A stretch of DNA of 64,000 nucleotides from Candidatus Poribacteria bacterium (GCA_964291315.2 OZ219752.1:1-64000); one strand, 5' to 3'; counted from the stretch's first letter, positions 20,251 to 62,300 are shown. Translations and numbers: made by a program. Notes: generated by a model from the letters alone, not told the origin.

Positions 20251-21747
20251 TTACCACGGTGCCTGACGTTCAGGAAGTGGATCCACCGTCCACGCCATCC
20301 GATCTATGAGTCTTCCCTGCATTTCCAATTTAATAGATGCATAATCGGGAGAATCCCAAAGATTATTTGTTTCTTGGGGATCCGAGTTGAGGTCGTAGAG
20401 TTCTCCGTCTCCAGTTCCGTGAGCAACGACAATCTTATGGTGCCGGCTTCTCACCATTGTCGCATGCGCTGCGGGTTCACGATGCCAACCCATTGCGTTG
20501 TAATACTCACAATAGACATCATCACGGTGTGTACTTAACTCTTTTTTCCCATTGAGAAGTGACAAGAGGCTCTGCCCCTGAATGCCGGGATATCGTTCCA
20601 TGTTACTCGCTTCAAGCAGGGTGGGTGCGATATCCACCAATTCCACGAATGCTTCTGAACGTGCCCCACTATTCAGTATTCCGGGGCCAGAGATAAGCAG
20701 CGGTACGCGGACAGCTGGATCATAGAAATAGGGCCCCTTGAGATAAATGCCGTGGTCACCGAGCATCTCGCCATGGTCGGACGTGAAAATAACAATAGTA
20801 TTTTCACGTTGTCCGATCTCTTCTAGGAAGTTTAGCAGTCGCCCCACCTGTGTGTCAATGACATCTATCATCGCCCAATATGCGGCGCGTATCCACCGAT
20901 GATCCGCATCGGTCATGTTTTTGTAAGGATAGCCGGACATTCCACCGTAGGCCCCAGCATGGTCGATCCGTTGCCATATCGGCTTATTTTCAAGCTCGCT
21001 GTCAACATAGTTTGGGAGTGGTATATCATCAAGCACATCACGGTAGCGCTCGAGTGCCTCGAGTGGCGGGTCAAATGCATGGTGTGGGTCGAACATATTG
21101 AGAGAAAAAAGCCACGGTCGTTCAAAACGTTTAGCACTTCTTATAAACGACATTGCCCGCTCGACACACCACGTCGTTTGGCTGTGTGCCTCTGATGGAA
21201 TCACTTGGACGTATTCGGATTCTTGAAAGGGTCTTGTATCTCTATGCAGGTTTTTATCGCGTAACCACTGTGTATAGCCGTGGGCGAACCAAGCGTCATT
21301 TGGATCGTGGGACCAGAAAAACTGGTCGTAGCCATCATCAGTACGTGGCTCTGTTCCCTTGCAGACGTGTGGGTTGCAGGGCGCGAGGTGTAGTTTACCG
21401 GCTAAACCACACACGTACCCTGCATCATGGAACAGTTTCGTTACGAGTACCTCATCAGATGGAATTGCTTGTCCATTTTGTCTGCATCGTGTAGTACGCG
21501 GGTAACGTCCGGTGAGGAAGCTAGCACGACTCGGTGTGCAAACTGGACTTTGGGAATAGGCGTGTTCAAAAAGAACACCCTCTTGTGCGAGGCTGTTTAA
21601 ATTCGGTGTATGGACAAAGCTGTTGCCATAACAACCTAAAGAATCAAAGCGTTGTTGGTCGCTACAAATCCAGAGGATATTCGGTTGGTTGCTCACGCCT
21701 TTTCCTTTTTCAGGTTTTGCCTCATTTGATAGACACACTGCTAGCAC
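20251..21747 (-). CDS. Sulfatase (Cys-type, formylglycine-dependent)
   Basis: PNILWICSDQ, CTPSRAS..TG, GKLHL, FTSDHG, ELYDL..DP.E..NL. Confidence 0.92.
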   Translation of the reverse strand: MLAVCLSNEAKPEKGKGVSNQPNILWICSDQQRFDSLGCYGNSFVHTPNLNSLAQEGVLFEHAYSQSPVCTPSRASFLTGRYPRTTRCRQNGQAIPSDEVLVTKLFHDAGYVCGLAGKLHLAPCNPHVCKGTEPRTDDGYDQFFWSHDPNDAWFAHGYTQWLRDKNLHRDTRPFQESEYVQVIPSEAHSQTTWCVERAMSFIRSAKRFERPWLFSLNMFDPHHAFDPPLEALERYRDVLDDIPLPNYVDSELENKPIWQRIDHAGAYGGMSGYPYKNMTDADHRWIRAAYWAMIDVIDTQVGRLLNFLEEIGQRENTIVIFTSDHGEMLGDHGIYLKGPYFYDPAVRVPLLISGPGILNSGARSEAFVELVDIAPTLLEASNMERYPGIQGQSLLSLLNGKKELSTHRDDVYCEYYNAMGWHREPAAHATMVRSRHHKIVVAHGTGDGELYDLNSDPQETNNLWDSPDYASIKLEMQGRLIDRMAWTVDPLPERQAPW

Positions 21748-28901: not shown

Positions 28902-29165
28902 AAGTGAATGTGGGGGTTTACAAAAGGCTAGAAGGACAAAAATAAAAAGTCTGATTCAATTGGTGTTAGCGTTGTTACCTGAAACCCCAAACGGATACTC
29001 GATGAACACGGGGGCGCGTTGAAATTGAAAACGTTCAGTGTGAAGGGACGACAGTTTTGATGTAGTTGCCGGTGCAGGGTTGAATGTTGGTATAAAGTTT
29101 GGTGCCTGTTTATGTTGTGCTACGGGCCCTCTCCTAAGTCGGACGTAGGAATTATAGTTCACACG

Positions 29166-29257
29166 CTTGGCATCTATTGTGCCGTCGGAAATCGGAGTTT
29201 CCTCCTGCAGGCAGTAGATAAGAGGGGCGTGGTAGCTGTCAGCAGAAGCCTACCTGC
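29166..29257. repeat. Cassette-flanking direct repeat R1 (copies R2 30322-30395, partial; R3 31465-31556)
   Basis: 92 bp, CTTGGCATCTATTGTG...CAGAAGCCTACCTGC; R1 and R3 differ at 2 positions; R2 lacks about 29 internal bp. Confidence 0.92.
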
Positions 29258-29312
29258 CCATCATGCCCTGAGAGTATATTTTTCACATATCAGATGTTAA
29301 CCAATAAAGGAT

Positions 29313-30176
29313 TCAAGGGGATACAGACCTCGCACAACGAAAACCGAGGAAGTCGTAGATCGCGAAGGACGGCGTAACGTAGTCGCGGCTGGCGACCCGC
29401 ACGACCTGCGCTGTATTGATCCAGGAGCCGCCACGCAACACGCGGGACGAATCAACACCTGTATATTTATCTAATAACCGCTTAATGTCGGGTGCACCTG
29501 ACAGCGGATTAGAGACTGGGGAAATAGTATAGAAGTTCCCATTATACACATCCAGACACCACTCCCAGACATTCCCCGCCATATCATAGAGACCATACCC
29601 ATTCGCTGGATACGCACCCACTGCAGTCGTCCCACCGACAATTCTGCCGTAGTTCGCCTGTGTGCTGCTAATCGTGTTTCCCCAGGGATACTTCAGCCCC
29701 GACCTGCCGCCGCGTGCGGCTTTCTCCCACTCCGCCTCTGTAGGCAGCCGTTTGCCTGCCCACTTCGCATATGCCACAGCAGCATACCAACCCACCTCAA
29801 CAGCAGGATGATTCGCCTTGCCCGCAGGGTAGTTGTTATCATCATCCCAATAATGTAGGTAGTACCCATTGTGTAAGTTGCGTGGAATCCGGCTCTTCTG
29901 CCACTGTGGGTTCGCCAACACAAACCGCTGGAAGTCCGCATTCGTCACTTCATGCGTGTCTATGTAGAAGGCATCCACATGGACGGTATGAATGGGCCGC
30001 TCATTCGTGTGAGAGTCTGCATCGTTGCTGCCCATCTCAAACTCGCCCGCAGGGATCAACACCATGCCCGCAGGAGCGGTGTCCTCCCGAGTTCCGTTAT
30101 CTGTCTCTTCCGCTTGGAGGCAGCTACAGAGAGCGACACTCAGTAAAGCAACAATCGTCAACTTCCATTTAGACAT
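29313..30176 (-). CDS. DGR target 1: lipoprotein with FGE-sulfatase (CLec-fold) domain
   Basis: Lipobox-like ALCSC, MVLIPAGEF.MGS, KRLPTEAEWEKAARGG, NGYGLYDMAGNVWEW, RGGSW...GFRC. Confidence 0.93.
   Translation of the reverse strand: MSKWKLTIVALLSVALCSCLQAEETDNGTREDTAPAGMVLIPAGEFEMGSNDADSHTNERPIHTVHVDAFYIDTHEVTNADFQRFVLANPQWQKSRIPRNLHNGYYLHYWDDDNNYPAGKANHPAVEVGWYAAVAYAKWAGKRLPTEAEWEKAARGGRSGLKYPWGNTISSTQANYGRIVGGTTAVGAYPANGYGLYDMAGNVWEWCLDVYNGNFYTISPVSNPLSGAPDIKRLLDKYTGVDSSRVLRGGSWINTAQVVRVASRDYVTPSFAIYDFLGFRCARSVSP
29326..29447 (-). repeat. Variable repeat VR1
   Basis: Matches TR with about 19 adenine substitutions, one G>C change and one extra NNC codon; identical to VR2. Confidence 0.92.
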
Positions 30177-30450
30177 GTTTCACCTCGTTTCATGCGTTGA
30201 TTGTTAGATTGTCCACACCTGACATAGCGGGAGTGGTGTAAAATAGAGTTAAGTTACACAACCCAGCAGGTTATGCAACAAGGCACTGCCGTCGCCTTAC
30301 CGTTATGATTATTATAGCAGACTTGGCATCTATGCAGGCAGCATGTCAGCAGTAGATAAGAGGGGCGTGGTAGCTGTCAGCAGAAGCCTACCTGCCCATC
30401 ATGCCCTGAGAGTATATTTTTCACATATCAGATGTTAACCAATAAAGGAT

Positions 30451-31320
30451 TCAAGGGGATACAGACCTCGCACAACGAAAACCGAGGAAGTCGTAGATCG
30501 CGAAGGACGGCGTAACGTAGTCGCGGCTGGCGACCCGCACGACCTGCGCTGTATTGATCCAGGAGCCGCCACGCAACACGCGGGACGAATCAACACCTGT
30601 ATATTTATCTAATAACCGCTTAATGTCGGGTGCACCTGACAGCGGATTAGAGACTGGGGAAATAGTATAGAAGTTCCCATTATACACATCCAGACACCAC
30701 TCCCAGACATTCCCCGCCATATCATAGAGACCATACCCATTCGCTGGATACGCACCCACTGCAGTCGTCCCACCGACAATTCTGCCGTAGTTCGCCTGTG
30801 TGCTGCTAATCGTGTTTCCCCAGGGATACTTCAGCCCCGACCTGCCGCCGCGTGCGGCTTTCTCCCACTCCGCCTCTGTAGGCAGCCGTTTGCCTGCCCA
30901 CTTCGCATACGCCACAGCAGCATACCAACTCACATTCACCACGGGATGGTTCGCCTTGCCCGCAGGATAGTTGTTATCATCATCCCAATCATATAGGTAG
31001 TACCCATTGTGTAAGTTGTCCGGAATCCGGCTCTTCTGCCACTGCGGGTTTGCCAACACAAAACGCTGGAAGTCCAAATTCGTCACTTCATGTGTGTCCA
31101 TATAAAACGCATCCACATAGACGGTATGAACCGGCTGCTCATCCGGGGCCGGGAAAGAATCCGCGTCGTTGCTGCCCATCTGAAACTCGCCCGCAGGGAT
31201 CAACACCATGCTCGCAGGAGCGGTGTCCTCCCGAGTTCCGTTATCTGTCTCTTTTGCTTGGAGGCAGCTACAGAGAGCGACACTCAGTAAAGCAACAATC
31301 GTCAATTTCCATTTAGACAT
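30451..31320 (-). CDS. DGR target 2: lipoprotein with FGE-sulfatase (CLec-fold) domain
   Basis: Tandem paralog of target 1 (1138-bp offset) with the same motifs. Confidence 0.93.
   Translation of the reverse strand: MSKWKLTIVALLSVALCSCLQAKETDNGTREDTAPASMVLIPAGEFQMGSNDADSFPAPDEQPVHTVYVDAFYMDTHEVTNLDFQRFVLANPQWQKSRIPDNLHNGYYLYDWDDDNNYPAGKANHPVVNVSWYAAVAYAKWAGKRLPTEAEWEKAARGGRSGLKYPWGNTISSTQANYGRIVGGTTAVGAYPANGYGLYDMAGNVWEWCLDVYNGNFYTISPVSNPLSGAPDIKRLLDKYTGVDSSRVLRGGSWINTAQVVRVASRDYVTPSFAIYDFLGFRCARSVSP
30464..30585 (-). repeat. Variable repeat VR2
   Basis: Encodes SRVLRGGSWINTAQVVRVASRDYVTPSFAIYDFLGFRCAR; aligned to TR by hand. Confidence 0.92.
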
Positions 31321-31519
31321 GTTTCACCTCATTTCATGCGTTGATTGTTAGGGTGCCCACACCTGCATAGCGGGAGTGGCGTAAAATGGAGTTAAGTTAC
31401 ACAACTCAGCAGGTTATGCTACAAGGCACTGCCGTCGCCCCACCGCTATGACTATTATAGCATACTTGGCATCTATTGTGCCGTCGGAAATCGGAGTTTC
31501 CTCCTGCAGGCAGTAGATA

Positions 31520-31730
31520 AGTGGGGCGTGATAGCTGTCAGCAGAAGCCTACCTGCTACCACGCCCCGGATTGTATCTTTGGCTCATCTCCACAAAACGG
31601 AGAGGAACACAGGGCCCAAGCCTTGGACTCTTCACGGGTGCACGCTTGATAGGACCCAGCTACATCCGAGGCCTATCAACTCTGGCAATCTGGTCCGAAC
31701 GACTTATCATCATCACAGACCTTTCAAAGG
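31520..31730 (-). ncRNA. Probable DGR RNA spacer downstream of TR
   Basis: No convincing ORF; inverted repeats TTGATAGG/CCTATCAA (31646-31679) and GGGGCGTGATAGC/GCTACCACGCCCC (31523-31567). Position matches the spacer needed for priming in the Bordetella BPP-1 DGR. Confidence 0.55.
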
Positions 31731-31849
31731 GTCTTCGCACAACGAAAACCGTTGTTGTTGTTCGTGTTCGTTGGCGTATTGTTGTTGCGGTTGGCGACCC
31801 GCACGTTCTGTGCTGTATTGTTCCAGGAGCCGCCACGCAACACGCGGGA
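31731..31849 (-). ncRNA. DGR template repeat (TR)
   Basis: Minus strand: TCC CGC GTG TTG CGT GGC GGC TCC TGG AAC AAT ACA GCA CAG AAC GTG CGG GTC GCC AAC CGC AAC AAC AAT ACG CCA ACG AAC ACG AAC AAC AAC AAC GGT TTT CGT TGT GCG AAG AC; 12 AAY codons; about 70 bp downstream of RT. Confidence 0.96.
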
Positions 31850-31920
31850 CGTTCGGCTTGAAACCTCGAGTGCCTCACGCCTAACAGGCGGGAAGCAACA
31901 CGGCTTTGAGAATAGGTATG

Positions 31921-32979
31921 TCAGGACCTCCGAAAAATAGTATCAGAGAAAAGAGAACGGCGCAGCCCATATGTGTCCGCATGCTGAACGTGCCCAAGCC
32001 AGCTCTGCACCGAGTGGTTGACATCCGCCCACGATATCTCCCCAGCACTATAGGCATCTCTCAAGCCGCACAACCGCCGCCGTGCACGTCTCACCGAAGA
32101 CGGGCGGAGCCGACGATGCGTCGGGAAAACCTGATACCCCAAAAAATCTGTCCCCGCTTTCACCGGAAACACTTGGCACTTGTGCTTATGGAGCTTCAAC
32201 CGCAGCTGAGACAGGTAGGCGGCCATCTCCGCTTTTACCCAATGGAGCCGCGCCTTGTCTCTATCAAGCACCACAAAATCGTCTACATAACGGATATAGT
32301 AGCGACACTTCAAGTCTTCTTTGACAAAATGGTCGAACCCGTTGAGATGGATATTCGCGAAAAACTGGCTCGTCAAGTTACCGATCGGGATGCCGCGGTT
32401 TCTATGGAGCGAGGTCAGCAGATCATCGCCTTCAAAGTATTCACGCACCGGCTCTTGCGGGTTGCTCCGGTCGACAATCAGATCCATCAACGCTAACACT
32501 TTTGGGTCCCGGATCTTTCGGCGGAAGCGCGACTTGAGGATGCCGTGGTCAATAGAGGGAAAATACTTCTTGATGTCGCACTTCAGCACATACGTATTCT
32601 TACGACTGAACGCAGTGAACCGGTCCACCGCCTTATGCGTTCCCTTGCCCTTTCGGCAGGCATAGGTATCGAAGATGAACGTCCGGTCGAAGAGCGGCTC
32701 GATCACATTACACAAGGCGTGATGCACCACCCTATCACGATACGGGGCAGCACTGATCTTGCGAGGTTTCGGCTCGTAGATAGAGAACTCCCGATATTCA
32801 CCGGGGCGATACGTCTGTGTTTGCAGCTCCTCTTGGAGCTGATACAGCTCTTTTTCCAAGTGGAAGTTGAAGCGGGCGATGTCCGCCCGAAAACGTTTGC
32901 CACGTTGCGCCTTCTGAGCCGCCTCGTAGAGGTTCAGATAAGAGCAGATTTTTTCAAAGAGTCGGTTGTGCGTTTTCAT
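31921..32979 (-). CDS. DGR reverse transcriptase
   Basis: [55 protein letters not shown] (DGR-type), [13 protein letters not shown]; 352 aa, no maturase or endonuclease domain. Confidence 0.97.
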
Positions 32980-33323
32980 GATGCAGTAGATTGGCTGCGT
33001 ATCCAGCCTCCTATCAGTTTGCCGACTTCATTGACCTCTTGAGAGATGTAGGCATACTGTTTTGTAGAGAGGAGATTGAAGTCATGAGATAAACGGATGA
33101 GATACCGGAGTTTCTCCAACTGCACGTTGGCTCTCTGAAGTAAATGTAACCGTTTTCGCGTATAGGTGGCTTCGATGAGCACGTCGAGGGTGTCCAAGGC
33201 GAGAGTGATGGTTCTATCGCCGAGGGTGAACTTTTGGGAGCGCGGAAATCTTTCGACGCGTCCGAGGAGCCACATAATCACATCGTAGAGTTTAGGGACG
33301 GCTTGAACTGTGGAAGCTGGCAT
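32976..33323 (-). CDS. avd: DGR accessory variability determinant Avd (four-helix bundle)
   Basis: 115 aa, basic; [32 protein letters not shown]; stop overlaps the RT start (ATGA). Confidence 0.92.
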
Positions 33324-33380
33324 TTTGAGAATCTATTCAATCGGTAATTATCAGTTAAGTAAAGTGTTGGTTTTGGGCCG

Positions 33381-33405
33381 CCCACGCCTGCATAGCAGGC
33401 GTGGG
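33381..33405 (-). promoter_or_regulatory. Perfect GC-rich hairpin/cruciform downstream of VR3 (probable DGR target-recognition element)
   Basis: CCCACGCCTGC-ATA-GCAGGCGTGGG, 11-bp stem, about 25 bp past the target 3 stop. Confidence 0.75.
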
Positions 33406-33430
33406 GTATAATATGTTAAGTAGTAAAGAC

Positions 33431-34822
33431 TCAGGGCGATACAGACCTCGCACAACGAAAACCGAGGAAGCTGTTCGCGCCCGCCGGCGAATAGCCGTTG
33501 CGGTAGGCGACCCGCACGGACTGAGCCGTAGCGCGCCAGGAGCCGCCACGCTCCACGCGGGATGACTTTATTTGTGTATAGTTATCTAATATCAGGTCTA
33601 CATTGGATAGCGTGTTCACGTCTGACAACGGATTGCGAGAAGGCGAACTAAAATAGTAGTCCTTGTTATACGCATCCAGACACCACTCCCAGACATTCCC
33701 CGCCATATCATACAGACCATACCCATTCGCAGCATACGCACCCACTGCCGTCGTATCATTGACATTTCCGCCGTAGTTCGCCTGTGTGCTGCTAATCGTG
33801 TTTCCCCACGGATACTTTAGCCCCGACTTGCCGCCGCGTGCAGCTTTCTCCCACTCCGCCTCCGTCGGCAGCCGTTTGCCCTTCCATTTCGCATACCCCA
33901 CCGCAGCATACCAACTCACATACACCACGGGATGGTTCGCCTTGCCCGCAGGATAGTTGTTGTCATCATCCCAACGAGATAGGTAGGTTCCATTGTGCAA
34001 GTTGTCCGGAATACGGCTCTTCTGCCACTGCGGGTTCGCCAACACAAAACGCTTGAAGTCCAAATTCGTCACTTCATGCATGTCCATATAAAACGCATCC
34101 ACGTAGACAGTATGAACGGGCTGCTCATCCGTGCCAGATTCCGCATCGTTGCTGCCCATCTGAAACTCACCCGCAGGGATCAATACCATGCCCTCGGGCG
34201 GAGGTGGATCCGGCGGAGTGACAATAGGCACAGTAGTGGTAGTAGGGGTAGTAGTAGGGGGAGGCGTACCATCAGAACCACCACCATTGCCAGCAACAGG
34301 CGGATCCACAACAGTGCCAGTGTCCGGCGCCTCCGGCACTGCAGATACCCAACTAGACGTGATAGTCACTACAGAACGACCCGGATACTTCATAAAACCA
34401 TCCTCGCGAACAAAACCAGCACGAGGACGATTCACATAACTCAAATCAGACAACTTCACAGCCGCACTCAGCTCATCCGAGACTATCATAAACGAACGAA
34501 GCGGATGAATCCAAAAATCAAACGTCAACGTGCCACTCTTCGGTTTTATCGCCTCACCCGAACGCGAGATATGGAAGTAGATGCTGTTATCTGACCACGA
34601 ATAAAACTTACGCGTCTCACCCGGCGACAGACGATAATACCCGCGCGTCCGAAACCCGCTCGGAATGCCCGCCTTCGCAGGCCGCCACGTCGAATGGATC
34701 ACATACAAACTCTCATTGGTCTGATTCGTTACAGGGTTCGCCTTCCATTGCGCCGCTGCTAACTGAGCAACCGAAAACATCAGCACCGCAACAGTTAACA
34801 GAACAAACATTGTCCTTCTCAT
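33431..34822 (-). CDS. DGR target 3: secreted protein with N-domain, Pro/Thr linker and FGE-sulfatase (CLec) domain
   Basis: Signal peptide ending AAAQ, linker GTPPPTTTPTTTTVPIVTPPDPPPP, FGE motifs as in targets 1 and 2. Confidence 0.93.
   Translation of the reverse strand: MRRTMFVLLTVAVLMFSVAQLAAAQWKANPVTNQTNESLYVIHSTWRPAKAGIPSGFRTRGYYRLSPGETRKFYSWSDNSIYFHISRSGEAIKPKSGTLTFDFWIHPLRSFMIVSDELSAAVKLSDLSYVNRPRAGFVREDGFMKYPGRSVVTITSSWVSAVPEAPDTGTVVDPPVAGNGGGSDGTPPPTTTPTTTTVPIVTPPDPPPPEGMVLIPAGEFQMGSNDAESGTDEQPVHTVYVDAFYMDMHEVTNLDFKRFVLANPQWQKSRIPDNLHNGTYLSRWDDDNNYPAGKANHPVVYVSWYAAVGYAKWKGKRLPTEAEWEKAARGGKSGLKYPWGNTISSTQANYGGNVNDTTAVGAYAANGYGLYDMAGNVWEWCLDAYNKDYYFSSPSRNPLSDVNTLSNVDLILDNYTQIKSSRVERGGSWRATAQSVRVAYRNGYSPAGANSFLGFRCARSVSP
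33444..33562 (-). repeat. Variable repeat VR3
   Basis: Same length as TR (119 bp); between TGG and GGT TTT all 23 mismatches are at TR adenines; one non-A codon difference (TTG/GAG) at the 5' edge. Confidence 0.96.
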
Positions 34823-34977
34823 TTCAATTCTCCTTTATTCTTTAGGTTTAATATACGGCACAACCTAACAGGGTAGGCTACAAGTAAATCCTTTGTGTGC
34901 TTGTAGCATAGACTGACAGTCTGTGCCTCTTTTTAATATGATACAATGCACAACCTAATAGGTTATGCTACAGCTGA

Positions 34978-35541
34978 TTACTTCACTATTAACATTTTAC
35001 GCGTCGCACGGAAAGAACCCGCCTCAAGCGTATAGAAATAGACACCGCTCGAAACCCGCTCGCCCGAATCGTTGCGACCGTCCCAATACACCGACCGAGA
35101 CTTGCTACGGTAAACACCGGGCACCTGATGCCCTAAGCCCAACGTCCGTACCAGGCTGCCATCCGTTGAATAGATGGATACACTGACCTCAGCAGCCTCG
35201 GACAGCTCATACGGAATCCACGTCTCTGGGTTGAACGGGTTCGGGTAGTTCGGCAGCAATGCTGATTGCCGCGGTGCCGCTATGTTTTTCTCAGACAGCA
35301 AACGCGCACTCCTTTCCAATGCGGCTTGTCTGGCGCGCACAACGGCGGGCTCCGATTCGCCCGGTTCAGTCGGCATCGCATCGGGTTCAATGATAAGCCG
35401 CAGGTCTACTTCTACTTGCAGTGTAGCCGAGGGGTTCTCAGCGGGCGATTGTGCCTTGCTCCAGGCGTGCAGGGCGTAGCCGCAGGCGCCGATAGCGAGC
35501 AGGGCAATCATCAGTTTCGGGATTGTCACATACGTTTTCAT
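34978..35541 (-). CDS. Small secreted protein with FlgD Ig-like / T9SS-type-like C-terminal domain
   Basis: AGGAG RBS before MKTYVTIP, signal-like N-terminus, LLPNYPNPFNPETWIPY...YWDGRN..GE.VSSGVYFY...ATRKMLIVK. Confidence 0.85.
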   Translation of the reverse strand: MKTYVTIPKLMIALLAIGACGYALHAWSKAQSPAENPSATLQVEVDLRLIIEPDAMPTEPGESEPAVVRARQAALERSARLLSEKNIAAPRQSALLPNYPNPFNPETWIPYELSEAAEVSVSIYSTDGSLVRTLGLGHQVPGVYRSKSRSVYWDGRNDSGERVSSGVYFYTLEAGSFRATRKMLIVK

Positions 35542-35751
35542 CGGAAAATACTCCTTTTTTGTATAGGCAGGGATGTTTGTCTGACTCAATTGCGGATGAC
35601 CGCAGATGTCCTGAAGCTCCCTGCCAGTAGCGGCATCAGGACAATACGTTTTGGTGCCCCCGGGTGAGGCGGATATAATCACATCCAACCGACATATCTA
35701 ATACCCGCTACATTCCCACTTGTATGGGCATGTTTTTTTATTCTCTTGGAA

Positions 35752-36297
35752 TCATACTAAAGGCCTTCGAGACCAAAAGCCGTTACGCCCCCGCGTGTCG
35801 ATATGGACATAAGTGGCATAGCGACCAATCCCGCCATTGAATTGAAATTCGCAACCGCCGTTATTTTCACGCTCGTTCAGAGGCATATATGGAACGTTAC
35901 CAGCTGGGACCTCAACTCGAGTGCGATTGCACTCAATAGCGACTGGAGATGTGAACCATTGACCTTGCCATTGTCTTAAAATCTCACATGTTCTTTCCGA
36001 GGAAACTCCCTCGGCGCAAAAGTCGGCAGCAGAAAATGCTTGATGCTGGCTACGGGGACGTCCTTTTTTTAGATGATTGTAAGCTGGAGCTCGGTACACT
36101 GAAGTCAGGTGAATCGGCACATCGAGATCGGCGCGCAGCCGATCCAGAATGAGAATCGTCGGAACAATATTTCCCCACATATTGCGTGGGGGAATTTCAT
36201 TCAGTTCTTCTCCAGTTCCGATTAGCAATTCATTTGCTTGAAAGTGCTGCAGTTCAAGCGTGGCAATAAAGTTATTAAAATCATTAAAATCATTCAT
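35752..36297 (-). CDS. Peptidase M15A-like D-Ala-D-Ala metallopeptidase
   Basis: TSVYR...YN, SQH...AAD, GGIGRY..YVHIDTRG. Confidence 0.8.
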   Translation of the reverse strand: MNDFNDFNNFIATLELQHFQANELLIGTGEELNEIPPRNMWGNIVPTILILDRLRADLDVPIHLTSVYRAPAYNHLKKGRPRSQHQAFSAADFCAEGVSSERTCEILRQWQGQWFTSPVAIECNRTRVEVPAGNVPYMPLNERENNGGCEFQFNGGIGRYATYVHIDTRGRNGFWSRRPLV

Positions 36298-59353: not shown

Positions 59354-62300
59354 ATGCTTCATCGAGAACGAATCCTTGAATATCTCAGAGCCGCTAACTT
59401 TAGCGCCCTCTTCACCCAAGCACTCGGGTGGGAGCACTACACACAAGCACTAAATATCAGCGTAGACGCTACCGAGTGGCACCTCTCCGCAGTCGCAGAG
59501 AAACGCGGCATGATCGTCTTTGAATGCCACGCAACAGACGCAGATGGACAACTCCCCGATTATGCGCTGCGCCGGAAGATCCAGCAGCAAGTCGCGCGCT
59601 CCGCCCATGAGCATATTATCATCTACACCGATGCCGAGAGGACAACGCATCTCTGGCAGTGGGTCAGAAGGGAGCCGGGCAAGCCGGATGCCTGCCGAGA
59701 GCACAGGTATCACACGGCGCAATCGGGGGAGTCGCTGATACAAAAGTTAGAGCCGATCGCCTTCAGTCTTGACGAAGAAGCCGAACTGACACTCTCTGAC
59801 GTGACAGGGCGCGTCGGGAGCGCGTTCTATGCGGAGCGGGTGACCAAGAAGTTTTACGATCGCTTCAAGCGAGAGCAGACGGCGTTCCTGACCTTCCTCA
59901 CGGGCATCCCGGACGCCGAGGTGCAGCGCGCATATGTCTCTATCCTGCTGAATCGGCTGATGTTCATCTACTTCATTCAGAAGAAGGGGTTCCTCAACAA
60001 TGACCTAGACTATCTGCGGCACACGTTGACGGAGACGCAAAAGAGTGGCAGCGACCGGTACTATAGAGCGTTTCTCTGTCCGCTGTTCTTTGAAGGGTTC
60101 GCAAAGCCGGAGGCAGAGCGGAGCAGAACCGTGGTCGGGCTCCTCGGGGATGTGCCGTATCTCAACGGCGGCATCTTTGAGCAGCACGCCATAGAGACGC
60201 ATCACGGGGAGCATATTGAGATCCCGGATGCGGCGTTTGAACAGCTCTTCGGGTTCTTTGATGCGTATCAGTGGCATTTGGACGATCGCCCGTTGAAAAA
60301 TGACACGGAGATCAACCCGGATGTGCTGGGATATATCTTTGAGAAATACATCAATCAGAAGCAGATGGGTGCTTATTATACGAAGGAAGACATCACCGAA
60401 TATATCAGCAAAAACACGATTATTCCGTTTCTCTTTGATGCGGCACGGCGGTCGTGTGAGATAGCGTTTGCGGCGGATGGTACGGTGTGGCAGTTGCTGC
60501 GAGATGCCCCGGAGCGCTATATCTACCCGGCTGTGAGCAAAGGGACTGAATTAGAGTTGCCGCCCCATATCGCTGCGGGGGTTGCGGATGTCTCTAAGCG
60601 CACAGATTGGAACACCGTTGCGCCTTCCGAGTATGCCTTGCCGACAGAGATATGGCGGGAAGTCGTTGCGAGACGACAGCGCTACGAGACGCTGCGTGCG
60701 AAGCTGGTCAACGGAGACGTCGCCAGCATCAACGATCTGATTACCTACAATCTAGATGTCCGCCAGTTCGCACAGGACGTAATCGCGGGATGTGAGGGCC
60801 CCGAGCTGCTGCGTGCGTTTTGGCAGGCGATCAGACACATCAGCATCCTGGATCCGACGTGTGGCTCGGGAGCGTTCCTCTTCGCCGCTGTGAATATCCT
60901 CGTGCCGCTCTATGAGGCGTGTCTCGACCGAATGCAAGCCTTCCTCGACGATGCTGACGCACGCCCTGGAACAGGTGGCCGGCGCTATGCTGACTTCCGA
61001 GAGACGCTTAAGCGTATAGAGCAGCATCCGAACAGAGCCTATTTTATTCTCAAGTCTATTGTGATAAATAACCTCTACGGTGTGGACATCATGGCGGAGG
61101 CAGTTGAAATCTGTAAGCTCCGGCTCTTCCTGAAGATGGTCTCACAGATTGAAGATGTGCGGCAGATAGAGCCGTTGCCAGACATCGACTTCAACATCCA
61201 GTCGGGGAATAGTCTCGTCGGGTTCTCAACGTATGATGCGGTAGAGCGTGCGGTGACGGGCAAGCTGGACTTTGACGACACGATGCGGCGGCTTCGGGAG
61301 AAGGCAGAGGATGTGGATGCGTTGTTCCAAGCGTTTCGCAGGCAACAGACGGCGTTAGGCGGGGTCGTGACGCGTGCGGATAAGCAGGCATTGCGGGAGA
61401 GACTGGGTGTCTTAGAAGATGAGTTGAACCTTTACCTTGCGGGTGAGTATGGCGTGAACACTTCACATAATATAAGCGGGGGGGGTAATCACCGATTACC
61501 ACAAATGGCTTGCCACGCATAAGCCCTTCCACTGGTTCATCGCTTTCTACAGCATCCTCAAAGAAGGCGGATTTGATGTCATCATCGGAAACCCACCCTA
61601 CATAGAATATAGCAAAGTCAAAAAGGATTATACAGTAAAAGGATACGAAACCGAAACGTGCGGCAACCTATATGCGATGTCCGTTGAAAGAGCATTTCGG
61701 CTAAGCAAGGGACCCATCGGAATGATCGTGCAACTCCCTTTAGTCTGTACCAAGCGCATGATACCCGCACAATCACTTTTCAAGTCTTCAAATCGGAAAA
61801 GTTGGTTCGCTAATTTTGATGATAGCCCAGGGAAACTTTTTGACGACCTACCTCATATACGTGCTACTATCTTTCTCACTACGGAAGAAAAAGCTTTGGA
61901 AATGGAATCCACCTTATATTCCACGCGGTATAATAGATGGTTCACGGAAGTGCGATCCATCTTGTTTGAAGGTATGGTTTATGAAGACATTACAGACATT
62001 TGTGTTGAAGGTTCATTTCCAAAAATCGCGGATTCTGTGGGGAAGAGTCTCGCAAGAAAACTCATGAACTTTAAAAAACCTATTTTGAACTTTAAAACAG
62101 GAAAGCATGTGTGCTATTTTCACAATTCGCCTCACCATTGGATGCGGGCAATGAACTTTGTCCCTTACTTTTGGAACGAGCGAGACGGTGAGAAAATCTC
62201 AACTCAGATGAAACCGCTGCACTTTAGAACCCAATTAGACGCTTATGTCGCCGCCGCAAGCTTGAACAGCTCGCTTTTCTACTGGTGGTTTGTTGTGCTT

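Follow-up and report, generated by a model that had tools for sequence, protein, structure and literature searches.

The DNA analysed here (hereafter the window) is a stretch of 64,000 nucleotides from a Candidatus Poribacteria bacterium (GCA_964291315.2 OZ219752.1:1-64000). Positions are counted from its first letter, and the element under study occupies positions 29166-34822. At this locus we identified a genuine, complete, chromosomal, multi-target diversity-generating retroelement (DGR) of the TvpA/FGE type. ORF calling located all five of its open reading frames (ORFs) on the minus strand, where they encode three target proteins with a formylglycine-generating enzyme (FGE)/C-type lectin (CLec) fold, an Avd accessory protein and a reverse transcriptase (RT). 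A repeat search of the window recovered a four-copy family of 115 nucleotides (D3; 29333-29447, 30471-30585, 31735-31849 and 33448-33562), whose adenine-rich member is the template repeat (TR); the variable repeats (VRs) lie in the target genes. The features are as follows:

33431-34822, minus strand: target3, 463 aa, with a signal-like N-terminus, an N-domain of about 140 aa of unknown family, a Pro/Thr linker and an FGE/CLec-fold domain.
33448-33564, minus strand: VR3, variable repeat at the 3' end of target3.
32976-33323, minus strand: avd accessory gene, 115 aa.
31921-32979, minus strand: DGR RT gene, 352 aa, overlapping avd by ATGA; Pfam RVT_1 2.3e-21.
31735-31851, minus strand: TR core, 117 nucleotides with 33 adenines and 12 AAY codons, outside any target gene and non-coding as placed.
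31577-31734, minus strand: structured, spacer (Sp)-like RNA 3' of the TR, composed of a short hairpin at the end of the TR and, beyond it, an element of 114 positions with four helices.
30451-31320, minus strand: target2, 289 aa, with a signal-like N-terminus and an FGE/CLec domain; Pfam FGE-sulfatase 8.7e-66.
30468-30587, minus strand: VR2, 120 nucleotides, at target2.
29313-30176, minus strand: target1, 287 aa, tandem duplicate of target2; Pfam FGE-sulfatase 1.4e-66.
29330-29449, minus strand: VR1, at target1.

Alignment of VR3 with the TR revealed 23 mismatches at TR adenines and none at other bases within the 72-nucleotide span that bears the adenines (hypergeometric p = 7e-12). Its three non-adenine mismatches, at core positions 2, 12 and 13, all lie 5' of the first TR adenine, and variable 5' boundaries are known in DGRs according to PMC5758913. 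Thirty-two of the 33 TR adenines fall in the mutable span. The TR contains 17 variable codons, none of which is able to mutate to a stop codon, which gives a capacity of about 10^17 peptides, and the VR encodes the last 38-39 residues ahead of the C-terminal RSVSP tail of the target. Because of the VR3 pattern, and because seven of the 40 VR-like sites of the genome (see below) show no non-adenine mismatch in the core, the element belongs to the DGRs, which are recognised by a TR/VR pair differing at TR adenines only.

VR1 and VR2 turned out to be one and the same sequence, 100% identical over 300 nucleotides (29211-29510 versus 30349-30648), the remainder of both genes being 94-97% identical. 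Against the TR as it stands, this sequence showed 19 adenine mismatches, one G>C change and a 3-nucleotide insertion corresponding to one extra NNC codon within the (AAC)4 run, so that five NNC codons face four AAC codons. Against a template with five AAC codons, 21 adenine mismatches and a single non-adenine mismatch (the G>C change) were counted. According to Wu et al. (PMC5758913), indels of DGRs adjoin AAC repeats in 74% of cases and are ascribed to RT slippage. At their 3' end, the TR and the VRs share the segment GGTTTTCGTTGTGCGA and diverge at the same base right after it; the TR continues with AGACCCTTTG, and VRs whose core has no more than one non-adenine mismatch all read (G/A)G(T/A)C(T/C)GTATC. 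This pattern fits a putative initiation of mutagenic homing (IMH) sequence in the VRs and a differing IMH* in the TR.

The RT contains the motifs YVDD and IGNLTSQ, the latter being a signature of DGR RTs. Its best match among solved structures was 8ub7_A (5.2e-62, 213 bits), compared with 1.9e-22 (83 bits) for the best group II RT. We took 8ub7_A as the Bordetella phage bRT because the numbering of the chain fits the published bRT residues. In the alignment to this chain, the equivalents of bRT K29, F66, R74, I76, I181, G182 and Q187, named in bioRxiv 10.1101/2023.10.23.563531, were conserved in the window RT in seven of seven cases; these residues make the template and dNTP contacts of bRT. 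Both a group II intron and a retron identity were rejected: the RT reached 146.5 bits with the group II model TIGR04416 (cut-off 300) and 45.5 bits with the retron model NF038233 (cut-off 235), below threshold in each case, and 29000-35800 matched no Rfam family at E<=1, group II intron and retron RNAs included. Avd was recognised by the NCBIfam equivalog NF033474 DivGenRetAVD (112 bits, cut-off 80) and by Pfam bAvd (2.2e-21, 76.8 bits, cut-off 40), although a phmmer search of Avd against the PDB gave no match at E<=0.01.

An earlier reading made from the sequence alone (the original prediction) had proposed a DGR with the adenine-specific mutagenic retrohoming signature, and it holds in its essentials, since RT, Avd, TR, FGE/CLec targets and adenine-only mismatches are all present. 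The overlap of avd and RT by ATGA, the 23 core differences between VR3 and TR, all of them at adenines, and the FGE/CLec-fold targets with a C-terminal VR (Pfam FGE-sulfatase 1e-62 to 1e-66 in all three) were found as described, and the proposed DGR type of the RT agrees with its similarity to bRT and with the conserved contact residues. Its TR of 119 bp with 32 adenines was essentially right, including the 12 AAY codons; the core measures 117 nucleotides and holds one adenine more, outside the mutable span. Three FGE-fold genes do end in VRs, but the identity of VR1 and VR2 had been missed, and the second cassette and the remote targets described below had been overlooked.

An adenine bias might in principle also result from ordinary divergence of a large family of FGE paralogues, with selection acting on variable codons and with an unrelated RT of the group II or retron kind close by. 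The genome indeed holds at least 63 copies of the FGE-fold domain, and in distant paralogues changes are mildly enriched at TR-adenine positions (p = 0.01-0.15), which could reflect site heterogeneity. Such divergence is contradicted by a bias as strong as that of VR3 without any non-adenine change, by the location of the adenine-rich copy, which is non-coding and adjoins the 3' side of an RT that is accompanied by an Avd equivalog, and by the RT scores and the Rfam scan given above. We consider this explanation refuted for practical purposes.

A second avd-RT pair was detected by tblastn in the same genome at C4:494812-496214, with an RT 99.4% identical to that of the window. The two loci (C3:35563-31735 and C4:492578-496400; C1, C3 and C4 denote contigs of this genome) are 97% identical over 3829 nucleotides, and they differ as follows:

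RT: 0.8%.
avd: 1.5%.
Target body: 2.7%.
VR (VR3 versus its paralogue VR3b): 24.8% (30 of 121 nucleotides).

TR adenines account for 26 of these 30 differences in the VR, and the remaining four (core positions 2, 11, 12 and 13) all lie 5' of the first TR adenine. Since the flanks are nearly identical, at least one of both VRs must have been rewritten by adenine mutagenesis after the duplication. We regard this comparison as the strongest evidence obtained here that the element has been active, and fairly recently so.

The position that corresponds to the TR in the second locus (C4:496284-496400) is occupied by a TR/VR hybrid. It equals the window TR (TR1) over its first 59 nucleotides and then departs from it at 13 sites, each of them a TR1 adenine; its 3' flank is of the VR type, and it leads into an ORF of 540 aa that contains two FGE domains. 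The second locus (C4:492578-497914) has no Sp-like RNA downstream, and the first 128 nucleotides beyond TR1 occur only once in the genome. We infer that the C4 template was lost when the TR crossed over with a VR downstream of it, which would have removed the 3' half of the TR, the Sp-like RNA and part of a target; an assembly chimera is also possible. The hybrid was rejected as an alternative template, as VRs mismatch its non-adenine positions (e.g. core 59-60), its flank is of VR type and it lacks the Sp-like RNA. Because of the uniqueness of the 128 nucleotides and the hybrid nature of the C4 position, a single template is the preferred reading, and the window appears to hold the sole intact TR and Sp-like RNA of the genome. 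'Degenerate' DGR loci served in trans are known from Thiohalocapsa (PMC10907252).

The TR and about 110 nucleotides beyond it were strongly conserved in eight of eight Poribacteria loci, namely that of the window and seven others with the order target-avd-RT-TR; in these seven the TR is kept at 83-97%, each retaining 31-34 adenines. A covariance model of the Sp-like RNA (114 positions, 33 pairs) was searched over 85 sources. Besides the eight sequences on which it was trained, the window at 31577-31696 with 110 bits among them, it matched 12 of 73 more distant DGR loci (E<=1); eleven of these matches lie within about 300 nucleotides 3' of the RT on the same strand, and the twelfth (locus L032) lies 5' of the RT. 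In the alignment, 92.4% of the cells pair, versus 33-50% after a shift of the 3' partners by one to three columns, and 27 of the 33 pairs show compensatory change with both sides altered, counts which lean towards the modelled structure because the alignment was itself fitted to the model. The element agrees with the stem-loops just 3' of the TR reported for 207 of 278 Avd-type DGRs in bioRxiv 10.1101/2023.10.23.563531. When 31570-31925 was folded as RNA, GGCUUG of the Sp-like element paired with CAAGCC, which directly precedes the TR, so that the TR is enclosed (31852-31925 with 31620-31640). Both sides are invariant in the eight Poribacteria loci, and in this fold the pairing may represent the upstream-downstream 'stop' duplex reported for BPP-1. 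Two further copies of the Sp-like element were noted, a strong one in a Poribacteria relative (L012:3565-3679, 85 bits) and a weak, partial one in the genome of the window, upstream of a two-domain target gene (L010:414-522, equal to C4:499404-499512; 23.9 bits).

A DNA hairpin was found close to VR3:

33381-33405, minus strand: G+C-rich hairpin, a perfect stem of 11 bp with a 3-nucleotide loop, about 25 nucleotides past the stop codon of target3.

Its DNA fold had a z-score of -3.2, and only one of 200 shuffled sequences folded as well. The hairpin recurs after VR3b (100% identical) and after the remote VR at C3:227105 (90% over 30 nucleotides), and it is a candidate target-recognition hairpin/cruciform or, alternatively, a candidate terminator stem. 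The hairpins after VR1 and VR2 gave z-scores of -0.6 and +0.3, no better than shuffles.

Concerning the targets, the FGE-sulfatase match of target3 (4.9e-62) covers residues 210-459. In the PDB, target1 matched true FGEs best (1.8e-37), the variable protein TvpA of Treponema (2y3c) following at 1.1e-13. The targets thus share the fold of the FGE enzymes (Pfam PF03781, PDB 6s07), but in the alignment of target1 with 6s07 the FLCHESYC stretch of the enzyme, whose cysteines are presumably the catalytic pair of FGEs, faces a 3-residue deletion without cysteine, and the VR spans exactly that segment. For this reason the targets would be binding scaffolds rather than enzymes, and we infer exported, ligand-binding proteins, the signal-like N-termini having been judged by eye. 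Genome-wide, at least 63 copies of the FGE-fold domain were counted as tblastn high-scoring segment pairs of at least 150 aa (e.g. C4:2728444-2733282 and C4:330277-333810), and none of the 63 fitted a regular expression for the catalytic motif (cysteine pair ...LCHxSYC...). The window carries a sulfatase gene at 20251-21747, though the FGE-fold copies of the genome do not fit the catalytic motif. Some proteins of the genome have three to five CLec domains, each closing in a VR-like segment.

A search of the genome with the TR recovered 40 other VR-like C-termini of FGE-fold proteins, which were graded by their non-adenine mismatches within the adenine-bearing span of the TR. Seven of the 40, the hybrid included, had none, 11 had at most one and 16 at most three, the rest having up to 18; a five-AAC template was assumed in the count for three sites (VR1, VR2 and C4:497778). 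The 11 sites with at most one mismatch showed an adenine bias with p from 7e-12 to 5e-5. Ten real VRs with at most one mismatch lie in nine ORFs on contigs C1, C3 and C4, and the remote ones include C3:227105, about 195 kb from the RT, and C4:1233674. Multi-CLec targets of 1612 aa (five domains), 1177 aa (three) and 565 aa (two) were also found. At most of the less TR-like sites, the 3' flanks have diverged from (G/A)G(T/A)C(T/C)GTATC. Since the sites with at most one mismatch are spread over three contigs, one template would act on many remote targets, and targeting of remote VRs in trans is indicated; the seven remote targets of the Treponema denticola DGR, described in PMC5758913, are a precedent.

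The genes around the element gave no sign of a phage. Housekeeping and transport genes make up the 41 ORFs next to it (CTP synthase, Pol I, UbiD, TRAP and ABC transporters, sulfatase), and the scan of these 41 ORFs found no phage structural, integrase or terminase domain. The nearest RTs, with 78-83% identity, belong to metagenome-assembled genomes (MAGs) titled Candidatus Poribacteria, two of those contigs being labelled as the same genus. The CTP synthase (PyrG) is 85, 76 and 73% identical to those of three Poribacteria chromosomes and 52% identical to that of Anabaena. Both the non-phage context and the Poribacteria host suggested by the original prediction therefore withstood examination. 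At E<=1e-60, 12 of the 176 genomes of the phylum carry the RT; within the genus it is carried by 6 of 65, the genome of the window counted. These figures are lower bounds because many MAGs are fragmented. The order target-avd-RT-TR recurs in seven Poribacteria loci from seven species, and in six of six relatives with a VR upstream of avd this VR showed 14-21 adenine and no core non-adenine mismatches against its own TR.

Many DGRs are phage-borne. A prophage whose DGR varies a phage receptor-binding protein, as in BPP-1, could be invoked on account of the Peptidase_M15_3 gene close by (35752-36297). It is very improbable in view of the 41 phage-free neighbouring ORFs, of candidate targets on three contigs and hundreds of kb apart, and of the same locus order in seven Poribacteria species; moreover, PMC5758913 reports remote targets for non-phage DGRs only.

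Population data came from three runs of one study that cover the stretch, all of them as assembled contigs broken into short pieces around the repeats (29000-35700). In run X1, the only contig over VR2 carried 15 differences, 13 of them at TR adenines, one in the extra codon and one that restores the G of the TR; its best match to any paralogue of the genome was 90.6%. This variant contig is suggestive of VR polymorphism but not decisive. A search of the metagenome contigs for the exact 24-nucleotide 3' flank of VR3 gave no match.

Several observations weigh against an active element that serves many targets. VR1 and VR2 fit the TR only with one added AAC codon, which still leaves one G>C change over. 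As they are identical over 300 nucleotides in genes that are otherwise 94-97% identical, neither has been rewritten since a recent duplication or gene conversion, unless this identity is an assembly artefact, which is possible. The strong hairpin occurs after VR3-type sites and is absent after VR1 and VR2, and the pair counts of the Sp-like RNA are favoured by the model-fitted alignment. The X1 contig is not securely that of VR2, because the contigs are fragmented and about 40 paralogous VR-like sites can cross-map. Finally, the shared 3' segment has 1-3 mismatches in some of the better remote VRs, and trans targeting is deduced from sequence fit.

Part of these observations would be expected from a fossil or currently silent DGR with intact parts, in which the VRs would preserve the marks of earlier diversification. 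The fact that VR1 equals VR2, their extra AAC codon and G>C change, the gradient of decay among the VR-like sites, up to 18 core non-adenine mismatches, and the second cassette without a template are all in keeping with silence. Against silence, the RT and avd genes remain open in both cassettes, with differences of just 0.8-1.5%, the TR retains all its adenines, the Sp-like RNA is as conserved as in related species, VR3 and VR3b have split at 26 adenine sites after a duplication whose flanking genes are still 97-99% identical, and a sibling sample contains the variant VR contig. We therefore consider a silent element unlikely, and present-day activity is suggested at most.

Our overall reading, to which we assign a probability of about 90%, is that of a chromosomal Poribacteria DGR in which one intact TR-Sp unit most likely serves three local and about seven remote VRs, and whose second cassette is template-less. 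Building on the parts, the adenine-specific pattern, the post-duplication diversification and the conservation of the RNA element, all demonstrated above, the system would work as follows. The TR and the structured RNA that follows it would be transcribed together, and the RT-Avd complex would bind this TR-Sp RNA and self-prime, priming being proposed by analogy with BPP-1. The TR would then be copied to cDNA with random nucleotides opposite the template adenines, and the cDNA would replace the homologous VR at the 3' end of genes of the FGE/CLec fold. In this way up to 17 codons (about 10^17 peptides) would be re-randomised in the pocket that houses the catalytic cysteines in true FGEs. A single template would most likely be used for the three local VRs plus about seven remote VRs in trans, and the C4 cassette, with its 99% identical avd-RT pair, would have lost its template through TR x VR recombination. 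A bolder extension of this model, which we put forward tentatively and hold to be possible rather than probable, is that the one TR and Sp-like template, together with two redundant RT-Avd cassettes, is the sole writer for at least ten VRs in about nine genes on three contigs, multi-CLec proteins included.

Among the closest known systems is the DGR of Treponema denticola (TvpA, PDB 2Y3C, plus seven remote targets), which according to PMC5758913 is likewise cellular, non-phage and equipped with one TR, and whose FGE-subtype CLec targets with a C-terminal VR are scattered over the chromosome. The element described here differs from it in the order of its parts (target-avd-RT-TR-Sp, then further targets), in the host phylum, in targets that are nearer to true FGEs (1.8e-37) than to TvpA (1.1e-13), in the second avd-RT cassette without a template and in some targets with two to five CLec domains. 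With BPP-1 (mtd-avd-TR-Sp-brt), the mechanistic prototype, it shares an RT that is closest to bRT with conserved contact residues, Avd, the adenine-specific mismatches, a structured RNA directly 3' of the TR, the parting of TR and VR right after the shared 3' segment and a G+C hairpin after VR3. In contrast to BPP-1, it is chromosomal, its TR lies 3' of the RT (5' in BPP-1), it has many targets, these are of the FGE-subtype fold rather than the Mtd type, and its Sp-like RNA resembles no Rfam family in sequence at a detectable level. In Thiohalocapsa PB-PSB1, as described in PMC10907252, DGR loci are also duplicated within the genome, with one complete locus per class plus degenerate loci that lack parts; at the latter, the VRs agree at every non-adenine site with a TR located elsewhere, which was read as trans action. 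The targets there are STAND/NACHT-type sensors of conflict systems and the loci decay by transposons, whereas here the targets are of a secreted FGE/CLec type and the template was lost by an apparent TR x VR crossover, with no transposon involved.

Three further aspects of the locus concern its repeats, its upstream gene and the N-domain of target3. The corresponding features are:

29166-29257, no strand assigned: boundary element of the tandem duplication unit, with other copies at 30304-30395 and 31465-31556; repeat families D5, D1, D2, D4 and D7.
34978-35688, minus strand: upstream gene with a C-terminal sorting domain of the type IX secretion system (T9SS) type, the 3' 586 nucleotides of which lie within the block duplicated at the second locus.

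The unit of the tandem duplication that comprises target1 and target2 measures 1138-1144 nucleotides, and its boundary element starts at 29166, 30304 and 31465. A 43-nucleotide repeat (family D8; 30249-30291, 31392-31434, 34851-34893 and 34941-34983) lies about 30-120 nucleotides upstream of each target gene start, with two copies ahead of target3, and may be a shared promoter or operator for the target genes. A scan for promoter and terminator consensus sequences was uninformative, with 7 and 10 sites versus 5.7 +/- 2.5 and 5.7 +/- 2.3 in shuffles. The product of the upstream gene matched Pfam FlgD_ig (4.6e-9) and Por_Secre_tail (9e-6), as well as NCBIfam Por_Secre_tail (30.5 bits, cut-off 23). 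Its N-terminus (KKEYFPMKTY..IPKLMIA.LAIGAC) recurs at the start of a 310-aa FGE/CLec protein (C4:1231203-1232135), which suggests that domains may have been shuffled among DGR-associated genes. The N-domain of target3 (residues 24-165; window 34328-34753, minus strand) recurs once or twice in at least seven paralogous FGE/CLec proteins with the shared motif AEWQxNxVTNxT..., and it had no Pfam match at E<=10; a DUF1036 assignment, an Atlas lead with a score of 0.91, was rejected as unsupported by Pfam at that threshold. Farther away, at 59354-61522 (plus strand), a 722-aa ORF weakly matched an MmeI-type DNA methyltransferase domain (8.9e-8), and its product is possibly a type IIL/IIG restriction-modification enzyme.

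To our knowledge, experimental proof of cellular DGRs exists for very few organisms, and we found no description of a DGR in Poribacteria or in a sponge symbiont in the full-text literature, a search that covered main texts and to which the supplementary tables of large surveys may add some. What sets this element apart is that its enzyme cassette exists in two copies, one of which has lost the template, that its set of candidate targets is large and that the genome keeps a clean internal record of adenine-specific rewriting. The genome represents a natural experiment, with duplicated loci that are nearly identical save at the template-adenine positions of the VR, and with one of them devoid of a template; hence one may directly test whether the template acts in trans, whether TR x VR recombination removed the C4 template, and what the Sp-like RNA and the hairpin after the VR do. 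If the tentative extension to a sole writer is true, the target set would be among the largest described for a single template. The many 'FGE-sulfatase' genes of this lineage, which lack the catalytic motif, probably encode variable binding proteins; under the same extension, the at least 63 FGE-fold domains would form a DGR-fed binding repertoire instead of sulfatase-maturation enzymes, and the 'FGE/sulfatase-modifying factor' genes of Poribacteria would have to be read anew.

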